64,000 nucleotides of DNA, from positions 1 through 64,000 of the forward strand of contig JBCCHT010000048.1 in the NCBI GenBank assembly GCA_039028615.1, written 5' to 3'. Each line of letters begins with the position of its first letter. The stretch's first letter is position 1. This stretch comes from Myxococcota bacterium. Lineage in GTDB: Bacteria > Myxococcota_A > Polyangia > Nannocystales > Nannocystaceae. Below, in pieces: positions 48,001-57,000 of the stretch. Position numbers: made by a program.

Positions 48001-51000
48001 GTCGCACGCCGCCACCACCCGGATCTGGACCTGGACCTCCTCGGTCCCGCCGACGCGACGCAATCGCTGGTTTTCGAGGACCCGCAGGAGCTTGGGCTGG
48101 AGGTCCCGCGGCATCTCGCCGATCTCGTCGAGGAACACCGTCCCCTGGTGGGCGAGCTCCAAGGCCCCCGCGCGCGTCTCGCCTCCCTCTTCGCGACCGA
48201 ACAGCTCCGCCTCGATGAGGTCGGGAGCAATGGCGCCACAGTCGACGACCACGAAGGGGCCCTCGGCGCGGTTGGAGGTCTGGTGCAGAGCCCGAGCCAC
48301 GAGGTCCTTGCCCGTGCCCGTCTCGCCCTCCAGCAAGATGGTCACCTCCGTCGCGGCGACGCGCTCGAGCACGCCGAAGATCTTGCGCATGGCCAGACTA
48401 CGGCCCAGCACCTCGCCGAATCGCTCTTGGTCGCTCGGCAGAATTTCGGCGCGCGCGTCCCGGGGCAAAAACCGCAGCTGTACCTTGCCGACGCCGAGCA
48501 CGTCACCGGGCTTGAGATAGCCGTCGGTGACCCGGGCGTTGCCGATGAACGTCCCGTTGGTCGAGCCCTTGTCGGTGACCCGGTAGTTGTCACCTTCGCG
48601 CCTGATCTCGACGTGTTGGCGGCTGATCGAGTCGTCGGGCAAGACCACGTCGCACTGCCGGGACTTGCCCAGCACCACCCGCTCGTTCAGGACCTCGATT
48701 TCGCGCCCGCGTAGCTCACCGCTGAGCACCTGCAGGCGGTAGCCCTGGTGCCGTACCTCGAGTTCCTCCGGCTGAACCTGCGTGGAGTCTTCATGCACGG
48801 ACATCAAGCTACCAGCGCAGGCACGACCTCAAAAGAATGCATGGCCCCAAACGCGAACGAGGGCCGCTCGCATCGCTGCGAACGTCCCTCGTGTGGGTCC
48901 GATGGCCCGGACCCGTGGCTCGGCCCTCGGGCCTTAGATGTAGAAGTCGACGACCGCGACGCCCCGCTTGGTCTGCTCGGTGGGCTCGGCCTTTTGGCGC
49001 GGGCGGGCGTTCTCGAACTGCGGCCGGTGTAGCGGTAGCTGGAGGCGAGGAGCCTCTTCGGGCGCAGGAGAACGGCGGCGGGTGGTCGGACGCTCAGAAA
49101 TCCAGTTTGCTGGCATACGTGGTCCTCGGGCAGTTGGACGCGCAATCACGGCTTCTTCTTCGATTGGTGCAAGCGCGGGGCCAGATGTGGACACCGGGTG
49201 AGTGATCGCGAGAACGTGTGAATTCTCGGCGATGCGCGGCACGAAGTCGACTTTTTGCCCTAAAGCCGCCCCCCGACACCCGTTGGCTGGGTGGCTTGTG
49301 TTGTGGCCGCGTGGCGTCCCCACGGTTTCAGAATAACCCCGCAATTGGGCCGCGCAAGGTGGCTCACATGGCAGGTTTCCCTACCTGTAGGCGGCGCTCA
49401 TCGATGTCGGCATCTCGCCCGAATCGGCCCGATCGTCTTCGGCGAGCATCGCACCCCGCCCACGCACCGCTCAGGGTTTTTGCCGAGCGCGAAAATCGTA
49501 CGAAAAATTACACCACTTGCATGCGTGAAAAATCAACACGCGCACCGCGGCGAGATCACAGGGAGTTTTCAGAATTCGAGGACGACCCAAACGTCACCCT
49601 CGCGCTCGAGGCGAGCGACGTGGCCCTGGCCCATATCGAGCGCCGCTTCGTCCGCATCCGCGTGGATCGGGTCGGCCAAATGCTGGGCGAGACGGTCTCG
49701 AGCGGCGACGAGAGCCTCGCCATGCTCCCCTTCCGTCCACGCTTTTTGGAGATCTTCTTTCGAAAGTCCGAGTCGATATCGTCGGGGAGCGAGCTCCAAA
49801 ACCACGTCCCACCGGCCCATGCGGGTCGCCCGCACCAACGCACGCAGCGCCTGCCTTGGGGTTCGGTGCGCATAAACGTCGGTGGGATCTTCGGCGAAGC
49901 GCCATCCCTGCTCGGTCCAGACCGCCCGCACGGGATGCTCTGGACCCAAGAAGATGATCGCCTCGGGGCGGATTTCCTCGGGATCTTCGAGTGCCTTGGA
50001 CCAGCTGCGTCGCGCGGTGCCGTTGAGCATCGCCTGCACGTCGACGTGGTTGCGGGTGCCCGTGACCAGGTGCGTTCGGATCTCCGCCGCATCGTCGCGG
50101 GCCACCGCGCGACCGAGGTCATGCGACGCGCGGTCGAGCTCACGAACCTGACGAGGAGCACACGCGCCCAGGCTCAGCGCCGCGAAGCCCAAGCCCAGAG
50201 CCGAACACGGCCGGGCATGCCGACGACGATGGGGGATCGATGCGGGGCGTCTCATGTGCGACGGGGCCGGCCCAGCATAACAGCCGGAACCCGCCCCGTG
50301 GATGGTGGACGTGGAAGGCAGCCCTACTTGGGGTGCTTCTTGTCGTAGGCCTTGATCACCTGCACGGTGATGTCGAAGCCGTCCTTGGCGAAGATGACGG
50401 TCATCGGGTCGCGCACGAGCACGAGGTCCATGCCCTGCTCCTTGGCCATCTCGGCCACGATGACCTGCGAGTTCGCGTACATCTTCTCGAGCAGCTTGTT
50501 GTGCTGATCGCCGAGGTCCTGCTCCATGGCCATGAGGAAGTTCTGCAGCTCGATGGACTCGCGCTGGAGCTTCTCTTGGGCCTCGGCGAGCTGCTGGCCG
50601 CTCAGCGAGCCCAGCTTGGCGGCCTCGGCCTCGAGCGCGGCCCGCTTCTTGTCGAACTTGGCCTGCTTGGTCTTGCTGCTCTTTTCGAGCTTGGTGCGAG
50701 CGGCCTTGCCCGCCTTGGTCTCGTTGAGCACCCGCTGCATGTCGACCATGGCGATCTTCTTGACCTTGGGCACCTCGGCCGAGGCCGGGGTCGCGGTCAG
50801 GGTGGTGACGAGCGGAGCCCCCACGAGCATCAGCCCGGCGAGCGCAGTACGAAAGTGGCGATTGAACGTGGACATCAGGGCGCTCACTTGTGCTTCTTGT
50901 CGTAGCGGACGATGACGCGGTTGGTGAGGTCGAGCTTGGGGCTGGCCCACAGCACGGTCATCTCGGAGCGGACGAGGACGACCTCGATCTTCTCTTCGAG

Positions 51001-54000: not shown

Positions 54001-57000
54001 GGCTCCACAGCCGACGCAGGTCGGAGCTGAGCTTGCCGCGGGTGACCAGCTCGCCGACGGAGCTGTCGAGCTCGAGCAGCATGGCCTCGGACTCGACGCG
54101 GCGGTTGCCTTCGAAGCGAATCTCGACGATGGGCTGGCCATAGACGTCGACCGAGACCTGGGCCAGCGCGATGAGCGGGCGCAGCTGCGGGCCCTGGAGC
54201 GTCAACGACGGCGCAATGCCCGTGGCCGAAGCCGCCGCGGGCCACACCAGCGCGACCAGCAGCATGCACAGCCCCATGGCCATCGCCACCCAGCCCCGGC
54301 GCCCGCGGGCACGCGAGGCGAGGGAGGTCGGCGCAGAGGCGAGCGCGCGGCTCGACTCAGGAGCTGGCCGCATCCGCGGCCTGAGCAGCGCGCGCATCGT
54401 CCTCCTTGACCCGAGCCCCGGTGGAGTCCCCGATGAGGTGTCCGTCCGCCATGCGGATGACCCGCGGGAAACGGTGTGCCAGGTCGAGGTTGTGGGTCAC
54501 CACCAGCATCGTGATCCCCTGCTCTTCGTTGAGGCGGAAGAGCAAGGCGTGGACCTCGTCGCTGGTGCTTGTGTCGAGATTTCCGGTGGGTTCGTCCGCG
54601 AGCAAGAGCTTGGGTCGCATGACGAGCGCGCGGGCGATGGCCACTCGCTGCTGCTCGCCCCCGGAAAGCTCGCCGGGACGGTGCTTGAGTCGATGAGCCA
54701 TGCCCACCGCCTCGAGCATCTCTTCGGCGCGCTCGCGGGCGGTGCTCTGCGGCACCCGACCGATCATCGCCGGCATCATCACGTTCTCCAGCGCGGAGAA
54801 CTCGGGCAGCAGATGATGGAACTGGAACACGAAGCCGATGGACTCGTTACGGAAGCGAGCCAGCTGCGGCGGCGGGAGCTGAACGATGTCGAGGTCGTCG
54901 AAACGAATCTCGCCGTCGGTCGGCAGATCGAGTGTGCCCAGGCAGTGCAGCAGGGTCGACTTGCCCGCACCCGAGGCCCCAATGATGGCGACCATCTCTC
55001 CGCGGTGCAGATCGAGGTCGACGCTATCGAGCACACGCAGGGCACGGGACCCCTGAGAGAACTCCTTGGTCATCTCCCGCACCCGTACGAGGACGGGTCC
55101 GGCTTCGGCGCTCGGGGCCATGAGGGCGCGACCCTAAAATGGGCCCGATGGGGTGTCAACGCGCCGCGGGAGGGCTCGTGATGCGTCGCCGCACCCGCGG
55201 GCCACGACGGCGAAGCCGTCCCGAGCGCCTTGCCAGGGCCCCAGGACGGGTGGCAGGGCCCCCCGTCTCGGCGCGGGTCTCACTCGGCCTGGCGCAAGCC
55301 GTCGACCGGGCGGAGGCGTGAGGCCACGAGGGCGGGGTACAGGCTCGAGAAGCACACGATCACCAGGGCCGCCCCGCCCACCAGCGCGACTTCCACCGGA
55401 TTGACCACCACGGGCAGCTTCTCGATGTAATAGACGTTCTCGTTCAGCGGCAGGCCGAAGCGATCGAGGGCCCAACATAGGCCCAGGCCCATCCCGATGC
55501 CGCCAAAGCTGCCCAGGATGCCCACGCACAGGCCTTCGGCGATGAAGACCCGCAAGATCCCGGCATCGCGGGTGCCCATGGCCTTGAGAATGGCGATCTC
55601 CTTGGCCTTCTCCATCACGCTCATGAGGTTGGAGGCCAAGATTCCGAACGAGGCCACCAGCACCACGAACAAAAGCGCGATGAACATCGCCACCTTCTCC
55701 AGGAACATGGCGGAGAACAGGTTGCGGTTGAGGTCGCGCCAGTCTTCGACGAGCAGCTCCTCGCCGCGGCCGGTCCCGGCGACGGCGGCCACCACCGCGG
55801 CCTTGCCCGCATCGACCTTCTCGACGTCGTCGAGCTTGACCTCGATGCCGCTGACGCGATCGCCCACGAGCAAGAAGCGCTGCACCAGGGGCAGCGGCGC
55901 GTAGACGTTCTTGCGGTCGTACTCGTACATGCCCGAGAAGAACACGCCGCCGACCTTGGTCCACAGCTGACCGGGGATGCGCCCCACCGGGGTCAGTCGT
56001 CCCACCGGGGTGATGAGCTGGATGCGGGAGCCCACGCGCACGGACAGCTCGCTGGACAGCTCGCGACCGATGAGCACGGGCGGGAGGATTTCCTTTTCCG
56101 CCTCGTCCTCGTCCTCGTCGGCGCCATCGCCCGACGCATCGGGCTCATCCTCGTCGCCGTCGGCCGGGTCGTCCTCATCGAGCGAGGGATCGCGCGGCGG
56201 GAGCTTGCCCTCGGCGCGCAGCTTGGGGATCTCGACGGCCGGGTCCTCCCAGCCTTCTTCGGCCCACTCGTCGTCCCCGTCGTCGCCCGTGTCCTCGGGG
56301 TCGTCATCCGCATCACCCTGCGGCAGCTCGGGGGCGGGCGGCAGGACGCCTTGGGCCCGAAGCTTGGGGATCTCGACCGCGGGGTCTTCCCAGCCGCCGT
56401 CGTCCTCGTCGTCTTCGGGGGGACCGGGCAGCTTGGGCGGCGCCTTGCGCATCTTGGGCAGCGCGGACAGGGGGTCGCTGTCGGGCAGCTTGACCCGCTT
56501 GCCCGGATCGGTGGCCCCGCCTTTGCCCTTGCCGTCCTTGGTCGTGCCCTTGCCCTTCCCTTTGCCTTTGCCCTTGTCGAGGTGACGGGTCCGCCAAGGC
56601 TTGCTGTCGATCAACGCCAGGGGATCGGGCTCGGGGATGGAGGCGGGATCGTCGAGGTACGCGAAGTCCCCTTCTCGCACCAGCGACGGCAGGTTGGTCA
56701 CCGTTTTGTGCCGCTCGGAGAGGATGCCGTGGAGGATGGCGCCCTGACGGTTGAGACCGCTGCGCACCATGATCTCGCCCTCGAGGTAGGGGCTGGCCCC
56801 CGCCACGCCGGGCGCGGCCGCGACCGCTTCGGTCAGCGACAGGTAGTCGTCGAAGGGCCGACCGTCGGCCCGCGCCACCCGAATGTGGGCCTTCTGGTTG
56901 AGGATCTTGTCGCGCAAGTCCCCCTCGAGCCCGCTCATGAGGCTGAGCACCACGACCAACGCCATGCAGCCCAACAACACCGACATGGTGATGATGGTGG

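Follow-up and report, generated by a model that had tools for sequence, protein, structure and literature searches.

Almost all Gram-negative bacteria are taken to possess lipopolysaccharide (LPS) and its Lpt transport bridge. Where LPS is naturally absent, Lpt has in most known cases been retained, serving a different lipid. Reduced endosymbionts such as Anaplasmataceae and Orientia lost the lipid A genes and kept the outer membrane, with sterol in the envelope of some; LPS-free endosymbionts of this type have genomes of about 1-2 Mb, depend on a host and use its cholesterol. Among myxobacteria, Sorangium cellulosum So ce56 is reported to lack LPS (Keck et al. 2011, J Biol Chem 286:12850). 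Sphingolipids are also reported from Sorangium. Ornithine lipids are reported there as well, in an excerpt of PMC12971839. Finally, according to an excerpt of PMC11784454, retention of Lpt after loss of LPS is a repeated pattern.

The genome considered here, a Nannocystaceae assembly of 12 Mb (94 contigs, 96.66% complete), was compared with 201 genomes of the class Polyangia, including 25 from its own family. Like Borrelia, Sphingomonas, Deinococcus-Thermus and Thermotoga, it combines an outer membrane and Bam with an absence of lipid A; those organisms keep Lpt homologues, however (in a control set, LptF/G was detected in Thermus, Deinococcus and Thermotoga, LpxC was not), whereas here Lpt went along with LPS. 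Unlike the LPS-free endosymbionts, it is large and makes its sterols itself. It resembles Sorangium in class, free-living habit and possession of an outer membrane. We consider it probable that the LPS module and Lpt were deleted, and that the outer membrane was kept as a phospholipid membrane with sterols. In an ancestor of the Nannocystaceae, the genes for making lipid A, for making and transferring Kdo, and for the Lpt bridge with its LptD component would have dropped out of conserved operons one at a time. The outer membrane itself would have stayed, as would the machinery that assembles its proteins (Bam, Skp, Lol), and within the class such a loss would have occurred several times. We found neither the breadth of this loss nor the joint loss of Lpt and LPS described in print.

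The bamA-skp locus and the emptied operon slots

The window, that is the whole stretch of 64,000 nucleotides analysed, holds the bamA-skp locus (Table 1). Diderm machinery is present in the genome in the form of BamA, two Skp, Lol transporter genes and outer-membrane barrels, and the Pfam domains at this locus agree with what the earlier note had said of BamA, Skp and Lol. TonB-dependent receptors are also encoded, as are 16 proteins with an OmpA motif.

Table 1. Features of the bamA-skp locus in window coordinates, and deletions relative to LPS-positive relatives by contig (genes in square brackets are gone)
Feature	Position	Strand	Evidence or gene order
prfB (release factor 2)	57350..58459	-	Pfam PCRF and RF-1; upstream anchor of the bamA locus
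lolC/E-type ABC permease, lipoprotein sorting	55280..57325	-	Pfam MacB_PCD and FtsX
lolD-type ABC ATPase	54357..55121	-	Pfam ABC_tran
bamA, intact	51734..54397	-	POTRA repeats and Omp85
skp/OmpH chaperone, copy 1	50884..51429	-	Pfam OmpH, E 2e-25
skp/OmpH chaperone, copy 2	50324..50950	-	Pfam OmpH, E 1e-24
Deletion scar, 68 bp	50256..50323	-	slot of lpxD-fabZ-lpxA (plus a PPC-domain gene) in LPS-positive relatives
Lipoprotein-like protein, 228 aa, conserved in Myxococcota	49569..50255	-	downstream synteny anchor
FHA and sigma-54 activator	47437..48807	-	Pfam; second downstream synteny anchor
Scar 1	bamA locus		skp-[lpxD,fabZ,lpxA]-lipoprotein
Scar 2	C2		accC-[kdsB]-pyrG-[lpxL,lptA,lptB]-rpoN
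Scar 3	C28		atpC-[lpxC]-prmA
Scar 4	C36		psd-methyltransferase-[kdtA,lpxK,lpxL]-sigma factor
Scar 5	C13		folC-AMIN-[lptD]

The lolC/E-type permease occupies the same place in relatives, ahead of lolD-bamA, and the lolD-type ATPase is 58-76% identical to the gene preceding their bamA. BamA, whose true start probably lies near 54283, is 84% identical to that of Paraliomyxa miuraensis and has orthologues in 190 of the 201 genomes. The tandem skp pair is typical of Nannocystaceae, being found in all eight loci of Nannocystaceae type that extend far enough downstream, and in 4/4 family genomes. In the LPS-positive relatives G027 and G016 the order is skp-lpxD-fabZ-lpxA-PPC-lipoprotein, a homologue of the 228-aa lipoprotein-like protein coming after lpxA. 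That protein belongs to no Pfam or NCBIfam family, and its Atlas clusters are Myxococcota lipoproteins; the FHA and sigma-54 activator holds the same place in G027 and G037. Because the lipoprotein-like reading frame starts 68 bp after skp, no space is left for lpxD-fabZ-lpxA, and tblastn found no significant remnant of the three genes in the scar; fabZ is present on a different contig (C33:143197). The earlier statement that bamA-skp is not followed by lpxD is thus true here, but it is not diagnostic: among 20 LPS-positive bamA loci surveyed, a few of which end early, only nine have lpxD there. In LPS-negative bamA loci, lpxD or lpxA was found in 0 of 40, and fabZ is kept in 26 of 40.

The genome shows five clean deletions with respect to LPS-positive relatives, leaving gaps of 68-672 bp. 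An incomplete or mis-binned assembly might mimic gene loss, and 94 contigs at 96.66% completeness leave some room for it; yet every scar lies inside a contig and is free of N, LpxC, LptD and LptF/G are found in none of the 25 family genomes, and the genes are likewise missing from a cultured relative and from two complete Sorangium chromosomes, so that the artefact is largely refuted and its probability negligible.

Searches for lipid A, Kdo and Lpt genes

LpxC, LpxB and KdtA have no match in the genome, and profiles built from LPS-positive members of the class found no LpxK, LpxL or KdsB; together with the empty operon slots, these searches bear out the claim that lipid A synthesis genes are missing. 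Profiles for LpxA and LpxD matched only short generic hexapeptide proteins. A KdsA-like match was discarded as a DAHP synthase, scoring above the cut-off of that family. Nothing here closely corresponds to the MsbA copy lying near lpxB in G027 and G003. An MsbA-related exporter is encoded, with 519 bits for MsbA and 681 bits for MsbA_rel, its best fit. The heptosyltransferase family GT9 is uninformative about LPS, being missing from LPS-positive G003 and G027 too.

For the Lpt bridge the choice of profile is critical. Pfam LptD detects none of the 201 genomes, LPS-makers included, and LptD_2 and LptE detect none of five genomes, four of which carry LpxC; none of the three can serve as an absence test. 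The first report of a missing LptD, which relied on Pfam, was therefore blind, but the absence itself stands with a class-specific profile and synteny. That profile recovers held-out LptDs at E <= 3e-22 in 20/20, matches only LptD or LPS-assembly entries in the PDB and also picks up LptD structures solved from other phyla (best E 2e-18); its best match in the genome has E 0.24, and the lptD slot after the AMIN gene is empty. A phylum-wide LptD profile did give matches in LPS-negative families, at positions 419-476; the ten that were extracted are an unrelated repeat-bearing protein, and such matches disappear under the class profile. LptF/G were sought with a profile that recovers held-out members at E <= 2e-19 in 16/16 and reaches E 0.023 at best in this genome. 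LptA has no match either, and the lptA-lptB slot ahead of rpoN is empty. For LptA, B, D, F and G, then, the searches bear out the absence of LPS transport genes, as do the empty slots of lptA, lptB and lptD.

It could be argued that the searches overlooked an Lpt system, or even a lipid A pathway, whose proteins have diverged very far; for Lpt, this worry was already voiced when LpxC alone had been examined in relatives. Several observations would suit this explanation: in this class the Pfam models for LptD and LptE fail to detect their targets; the BamA branch leading to the family is long (1.21); diderms that have lost LPS as a rule retain Lpt (PMC11784454, in the excerpt cited above); and Polyangiaceae have LptA, LptB and LptD while LptF/G are detected in 0/11 of them, nor were LptF/G found in the flanks of their loci, which makes a blind spot for LptF/G-type proteins possible. 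LptD and LptF/G have now been searched over 201 genomes, however, and the absence was upheld; the class profile reaches LptDs of other phyla and finds none here; and the emptied slots mean that many genes would have had to relocate and diverge jointly. There are also 11 long proteins, ten of them barrel-like by their C-terminus, without a Pfam or NCBIfam family above cut-off; two barrel candidates compared with LptD gave a profile-comparison probability of at most 0.2%, and a single-sequence AlphaFold model of a family-less 762-aa protein has a pLDDT of 33. An overlooked pathway is, in our view, very unlikely.

Breadth and repetition of the loss in Polyangia

Deletion of the LPS and Lpt genes is by no means restricted to this genome. 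LpxC, LptD and LptF/G are all missing from 149 of the 201 Polyangia genomes, and the LPS pathway survives in roughly one quarter of the class. LpxC, previously counted in 0/12 family and 20/101 class genomes, is found in 0/25 and 51/201 of the larger sample. The class LptD profile, with just six candidates scored per genome, detects 46/201 (45 of them also LpxC-positive) and 0/25 of the family; all 146 candidates of Paraliomyxa were scored, with no match. LptF/G are found in 39 genomes, a count that leaves out seven with weak matches below the cut-off, and in 0/25 of the family; three further weak matches were the lolC/E gene adjoining bamA. LpxB parallels this pattern in 19 chosen genomes.

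On a tree of a single gene, BamA, where the family lies on its long branch, LPS-negative genomes do not form one clade, and a single-clade constraint is rejected (p-AU 1.7e-44); it follows that the loss appears to have been repeated rather than being one ancestral state. Polyangiaceae are a case in point. Two complete Sorangium genomes, like Paraliomyxa, are without LpxC, LpxB and LptD, whereas all three are present in Polyangium fumosum and Labilithrix luteola. The earlier note considered the trait partly known from one relative: Sorangium is indeed published, but, as other genera of its family keep lpxC, lpxB and lptD, its loss is a separate one. That an outer membrane free of LPS is a broad trait of Polyangia thus holds at the gene level, refined to repeated loss, "LPS-free" being what gene content would imply for the membrane. 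For the genes, we regard the loss, its breadth and its repetition as very probable. If free-living myxobacteria with large genomes have indeed lost LPS and Lpt together more than once, it would follow that neither is needed to build an outer membrane. What LPS does beyond phospholipid and sterol becomes testable in cultured strains, with contrasts inside one family (Polyangium and Labilithrix gene-positive, Sorangium gene-negative) and with Paraliomyxa, which has neither the LPS/Lpt genes nor the PF13444 acyltransferase type.

Candidate substitutes: surface lipids, sterols and their transport

Sorangium has a serine palmitoyltransferase (SPT)-like enzyme and PF13444 acyltransferases, matching its reported sphingolipids and ornithine lipids; our genome has neither. 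PF13444, which we take to be linked to the ornithine-lipid N-acyltransferases OlsB/OlsF, is present in both Sorangium genomes and absent from G000, G011, G061 and Paraliomyxa. No SPT of the Sorangium type was found, the AOS enzymes of the genome being only Kbl, a BioF-like protein and a PRK07505-like AOS-GNAT fusion (C8:84378). Non-canonical enzymes such as this fusion might nevertheless provide a replacement in the Sorangium style: it adjoins an ACP-fatty acyl-AMP ligase, with which it could join an amino acid to an acyl chain, and it matched solved structures that include SPTs among other AOS enzymes. Its best-fitting model is PRK07505, however, and on the SPT model its score of 139 bits falls far short of the 451-456 that enzymes of Polyangiaceae and Sorangium reach (Sorangium 456); only five homologues exceed 60% identity, the others being scattered over unrelated phyla, an accessory-like spread that leaves a family-wide SPT unsupported; and 24 of the 25 family genomes have no match to the SPT model at E <= 1e-104. 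We hold such a replacement to be improbable.

Only slightly less improbable is another specialised glyco- or aminolipid, brought to the surface by a route other than Lpt. Contig C56 offers a candidate, an MMPL pump, a LolA-like carrier and a family-less 603-aa barrel-like protein being contiguous there, and several more MMPL pumps exist; the presence of a nonulosonic-acid (NeuB/NeuC-type) cluster also shows that the cell makes surface glycans. Yet no conserved synthase was identified, and trios of this kind are common in LPS-makers too. Regex motifs picked up no ether-lipid enzymes, but as the Lgt motif matched nothing either, the scan does not count as evidence.

Under deletion of LPS and Lpt, the explanation that we prefer, a glycolipid of the outer leaflet would have no transport path of its own, and the outer membrane would likely be glycerophospholipid on both faces. 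Its most likely make-up, to which we give even chances on gene content, would be such a bilayer, dense with barrels and lipoproteins, which in Nannocystaceae would be stiffened by sterols made de novo. The genome has HMG-CoA reductase with HpnCDE, a squalene epoxidase domain, an oxidosqualene-type cyclase, and a P450 adjoining an ERG4/24 reductase. On TIGR03463, whose cut-off is 851 bits, the cyclase reaches 689, while the hopene cyclase model gives it 249; it occurs in 23 of the 25 family genomes and is missing from two. Lanosterol synthase is recorded in all cultured Nannocystaceae in an excerpt of PMC12004948. As a universal replacement for LPS, sterols are rejected, since cyclase distribution does not track the loss: the enzyme is also found in LPS-positive families (f4 4/6, f6 6/6, f17 1/1, f18 3/4) and is absent from LPS-negative f13 (0/14) and from most of f15 (2/24).

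Phospholipids would cross through MCE systems with long MlaD and the class-wide MlaC-TolC pair, sterols through HpnN/BstA-like MMPL pumps. More tentatively, and with rather less than even confidence, free-living Nannocystaceae and most sampled Polyangia families may have repeatedly discarded LPS and Lpt and have no known asymmetry lipid (lipid A, canonical sphingolipid or ornithine lipid), Nannocystaceae ending with a near-eukaryotic phospholipid-sterol bilayer fed by MCE, MlaC-TolC and MMPL. The joint loss of LPS and Lpt would also give the family's unexplained sterols a possible role, and it leads one to expect cells insensitive to polymyxin and to inhibitors of LpxC and Lpt, with vesicles free of endotoxin.

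MlaC-linked TolC occurs in 183/201 genomes irrespective of LPS, and the pair is therefore housekeeping, not a specific replacement. The genome has four MlaD loci, four HpnN/BstA-like MMPL pumps and one further MMPL pump. Methylococcus and Burkholderia, where BstABC and HpnN operate, keep LPS. Transport of sterols by BstABC and of hopanoids by HpnN/HpnM is described there in an excerpt of PMC11713862. The likeness lies in an MMPL-family pump for polycyclic lipids and in an MlaC/HpnM-like carrier, here located near the squalene genes; the pump at C37:119241 scores 384 bits for HpnN and 305 for BstA, both below the curated cut-offs.

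Missing lipid A and transport genes

The window covers positions 1-64000 of contig C48. The genome (12.27 Mb, 94 contigs, completeness 96.66%, contamination 1.83%) had been described in an earlier note as that of a diderm devoid of lipid A synthesis and LPS transport (Lpt) genes. Among the closest matches of its BamA, Paraliomyxa miuraensis (84%) is the sole cultured species and several others carry a Nannocystaceae label, so that we take the genome's family code, f1, to mean Nannocystaceae; the same reasoning would make f7 Polyangiaceae, and f15, which groups with a Kofleriaceae record, may take that name. 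The note's evidence on LptD, a missing Pfam row and six-frame match, has no weight, because the Pfam model also fails with LPS-makers, finding LptD in 0/201 genomes of the class. Searching with LptD sequences of other classes in the phylum located the protein in an LPS-positive Polyangia genome and led to a class profile (19 sequences) whose PDB matches (6 sequences) are all of LptD type. With six candidates scored per genome, this profile finds LptD in 46 genomes of an even sample of 201 (144 of high quality), 45 of them LpxC-positive, and in none of the 25 from the family. When the whole genome was scanned with a version built from 20 sequences, the best match reached E 0.24, against E <= 3e-22 for held-out sequences (20/20), the held-out row having been in the alignment; for LptF/G the best E was 0.023, against <= 2e-19 (16/16).

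Profiles from LPS-positive relatives, run in six frames, reveal no LpxB, LpxC, LpxK, LpxL, KdsB or LptA. The look-alikes proved to be a DAHP synthase, short hexapeptide proteins, generic ABC ATPases and a weak partial match inside a nonulosonic-acid cluster; among them is also an MsbA-related exporter, which may or may not be a true MsbA. Class-wide, BamA occurs in 190/201 genomes, LpxC in 51 (30/144 of high quality) and LptF/G in 46 (39 above cut-off), the last two in 0/25 of the family. The absence is real, and better supported than at first.

Five conserved neighbourhoods of the LPS-positive relatives G027 and G003 are kept minus their LPS genes, with all cuts inside contigs of an assembly without N. 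The AMIN gene of the fifth precedes lptD in four LPS-positive genomes. Some of the 60 bamA loci examined end at contig ends; neither lpxD nor lpxA lies at any of the 40 LPS-negative ones, 26 of which keep fabZ, a fatty-acid gene formerly between the two. Since lpxD is seen at only 9 of the 20 LPS-positive loci, some likewise ending at contig ends, the anchor initially proposed, bamA-skp without lpxD, proves nothing alone.

Gene arrangements and coordinates (C, contigs of this genome; L, locus handles; missing genes in parentheses)
Feature	Position	Arrangement	Remaining
bamA locus	window, minus strand	prfB, lolC/E, lolD, bamA, two skp, lipoprotein-like ORF, FHA/sigma-54 activator	
Scar 1	window	skp-(lpxD fabZ lpxA)-lipoprotein	68 bp
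Scar 2	C2	accC-(kdsB)-pyrG-(lpxL lptA lptB)-rpoN	gaps 138 and 159 bp
Scar 3	C28	atpC-(lpxC)-prmA	147 bp
Scar 4	C36	psd-methyltransferase-(kdtA lpxK lpxL)-sigma factor	672 bp
Scar 5	C13	folC-AMIN gene-(lptD)	
LolC/E protein	window 55280-57325		
DAC operon	window 42888-47353	folP-DAC-membrane protein-glmM	
Propeller protein	C2:28951-32016 (L562:952-4017)		
Squalene locus	C13:189490-201692 (L158)	mlaC-tolC beside mevalonate and HpnCDE squalene cluster	
Second cyclase	C10 (L159:4063-7439)	coupled to squalene epoxidase gene	
Orphan cluster, genome G191 (f11)	L059:8268-10955	GT2-lpxC-lpxD-like	

Elsewhere in the window, a long low-complexity insertion of acidic and basic character, in which a WEDP motif recurs, interrupts the periplasmic part of LolC/E, and the operon with a diadenylate cyclase domain (DAC) implies c-di-AMP signalling in this myxobacterium. 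The conserved 1021-aa protein on C2 has a TolB-like propeller; its G027 homologue bears an Omp85 barrel. It is a second Omp85-family member, also found in LPS-positive relatives.

Breadth and history of the loss

At least one of LpxC, LptD and LptF/G (over cut-off) is found in 52/201 genomes and none in 149, so that an LPS-free outer membrane as a broad trait of the class, as first suggested, holds at gene level. LpxB follows the same pattern in 19 chosen genomes (6 positive). Among cultured organisms, LptD, LpxC and LpxB are all present in Polyangium fumosum and Labilithrix luteola and all missing from Sorangium So ce1014, So ce26 and Paraliomyxa. In a BamA tree (69 rows) LPS-negative groups are interleaved with LPS-positive ones; uniting the 41 LPS-negative rows, a grouping set by gene content, is rejected (p-AU 1.7e-44, six rows omitted, faster model). 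In outgroup loci skp is followed by lpxD, which makes loss the more parsimonious course. Genome G037 (86% complete), without the markers, reads bamA-skp-PPC where its close sister G091 reads bamA-skp-lpxD, a recent loss. This implies at least three or four independent losses, a count that would take more markers to fix exactly.

Polyangiaceae have LpxC (9/11) and LptD (8/11) with LptF/G not detected (0/11), and genome G182 (L055, L056, L089, L103) has LpxB, LptA and LptB without KdtA or KdsA. Lipid A may thus be made there without Kdo, its extractor missing or unrecognisable, perhaps a step preceding complete loss. LpxC of Polyangium fumosum (L479) scores 304 bits on Pfam versus 137-178 for other Polyangiaceae, hinting at replacement via horizontal transfer. 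The orphan cluster of G191 (83% complete, without LpxB or LptD) was possibly acquired and may serve another acylated sugar. A conserved protein of ~850 aa with a repeated D-x-G-x-D-G motif (L113-L124) occurs in families f11, f29 and f30, with no homologue in the present genome.

Perez-Burgos and colleagues (2019) reportedly compared LPS genes across myxobacteria and may anticipate part of this breadth. LPS-free diderms are already known, Borrelia and Sphingomonas being named in PMC13721041, as is one LPS-free myxobacterium, Sorangium So ce56 (reported by Keck et al., 2011); Lpt was kept repeatedly after LPS loss, according to PMC11784454. PMC11324152, PMC11713862 and PMC13018214 give further context. 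Literature listings contain no statement of class-wide LPS loss or myxobacterial Lpt loss; supplements to phylogenomic surveys of the envelope may list such absences too. Word searches of PMC12288465, PMC9535733, PMC7105600, PMC5295582, PMC13445942 and PMC11821767 gave nothing on the point at issue. What we did not find in print is the breadth, the repeated joint Lpt loss, and Nannocystaceae without known substitute-lipid synthases.

Substitute lipids, sterols and transport

Three AOS-family enzymes are encoded, Kbl, a BioF-like protein and an AOS-GNAT fusion of patchy distribution adjoining an ACP-fatty acyl-AMP ligase gene; the Polyangiaceae and Sorangium SPT-like enzyme (451-456 bits) is unlike all three. 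The work of Keck and colleagues on So ce56 reportedly includes a sphingolipid result. Class-wide, the SPT model matches 10/201 genomes at E <= 1e-104, five above 430 bits and none over cut-off. PF13444 acyltransferases, sought in 19 genomes (5 positive), occur in both Sorangium genomes and not in Paraliomyxa or the sampled genomes G000, G011 and G061; ornithine lipids occur in S. cellulosum (PMC12971839).

Nannocystaceae sterols are covered by PMC12004948. Here the genes comprise HMG-CoA reductase with HpnCDE, squalene epoxidase, an oxidosqualene-type cyclase, and a P450 adjoining an ERG4/24 reductase. A cyclase is found in 23/25 family genomes, two lacking it, and in 91/201 of the class, some class-wide matches being weaker and probably hopene-type. 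A simple swap of sterols for LPS is opposed by the cyclase's frequency in LPS-positive families and by its absence from LPS-negative f13 (0/14), most of f15 (2/24) and the two genomes of the family itself. Lipids could travel by four MlaD loci, five MMPL pumps and the product of a TolC-like gene next to mlaC; this TolC occurs in 183/201 genomes irrespective of LPS state. Read most economically, the outer membrane would be made of glycerophospholipid, and sterols would stiffen it in this family specifically.

In LPS-negative f19, f24 and f28 (L044, L045, L536, L540, L543) the TolC-mlaC pair directly follows bamA-skp, in the lpxD-fabZ-lpxA slot, with fabZ between in f28; in three genomes of f7, no more than 3 kb separate that TolC from lptD. 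The squalene cluster on C13 includes a GHMP kinase-HMG-CoA reductase fusion, and hpnE-tolC-mlaC linkage recurs at 3/5 family loci examined. The second, divergent triterpene cyclase, on C10, is nearer the hopene cyclase model (161 bits), and G011 also has a second, weak match.
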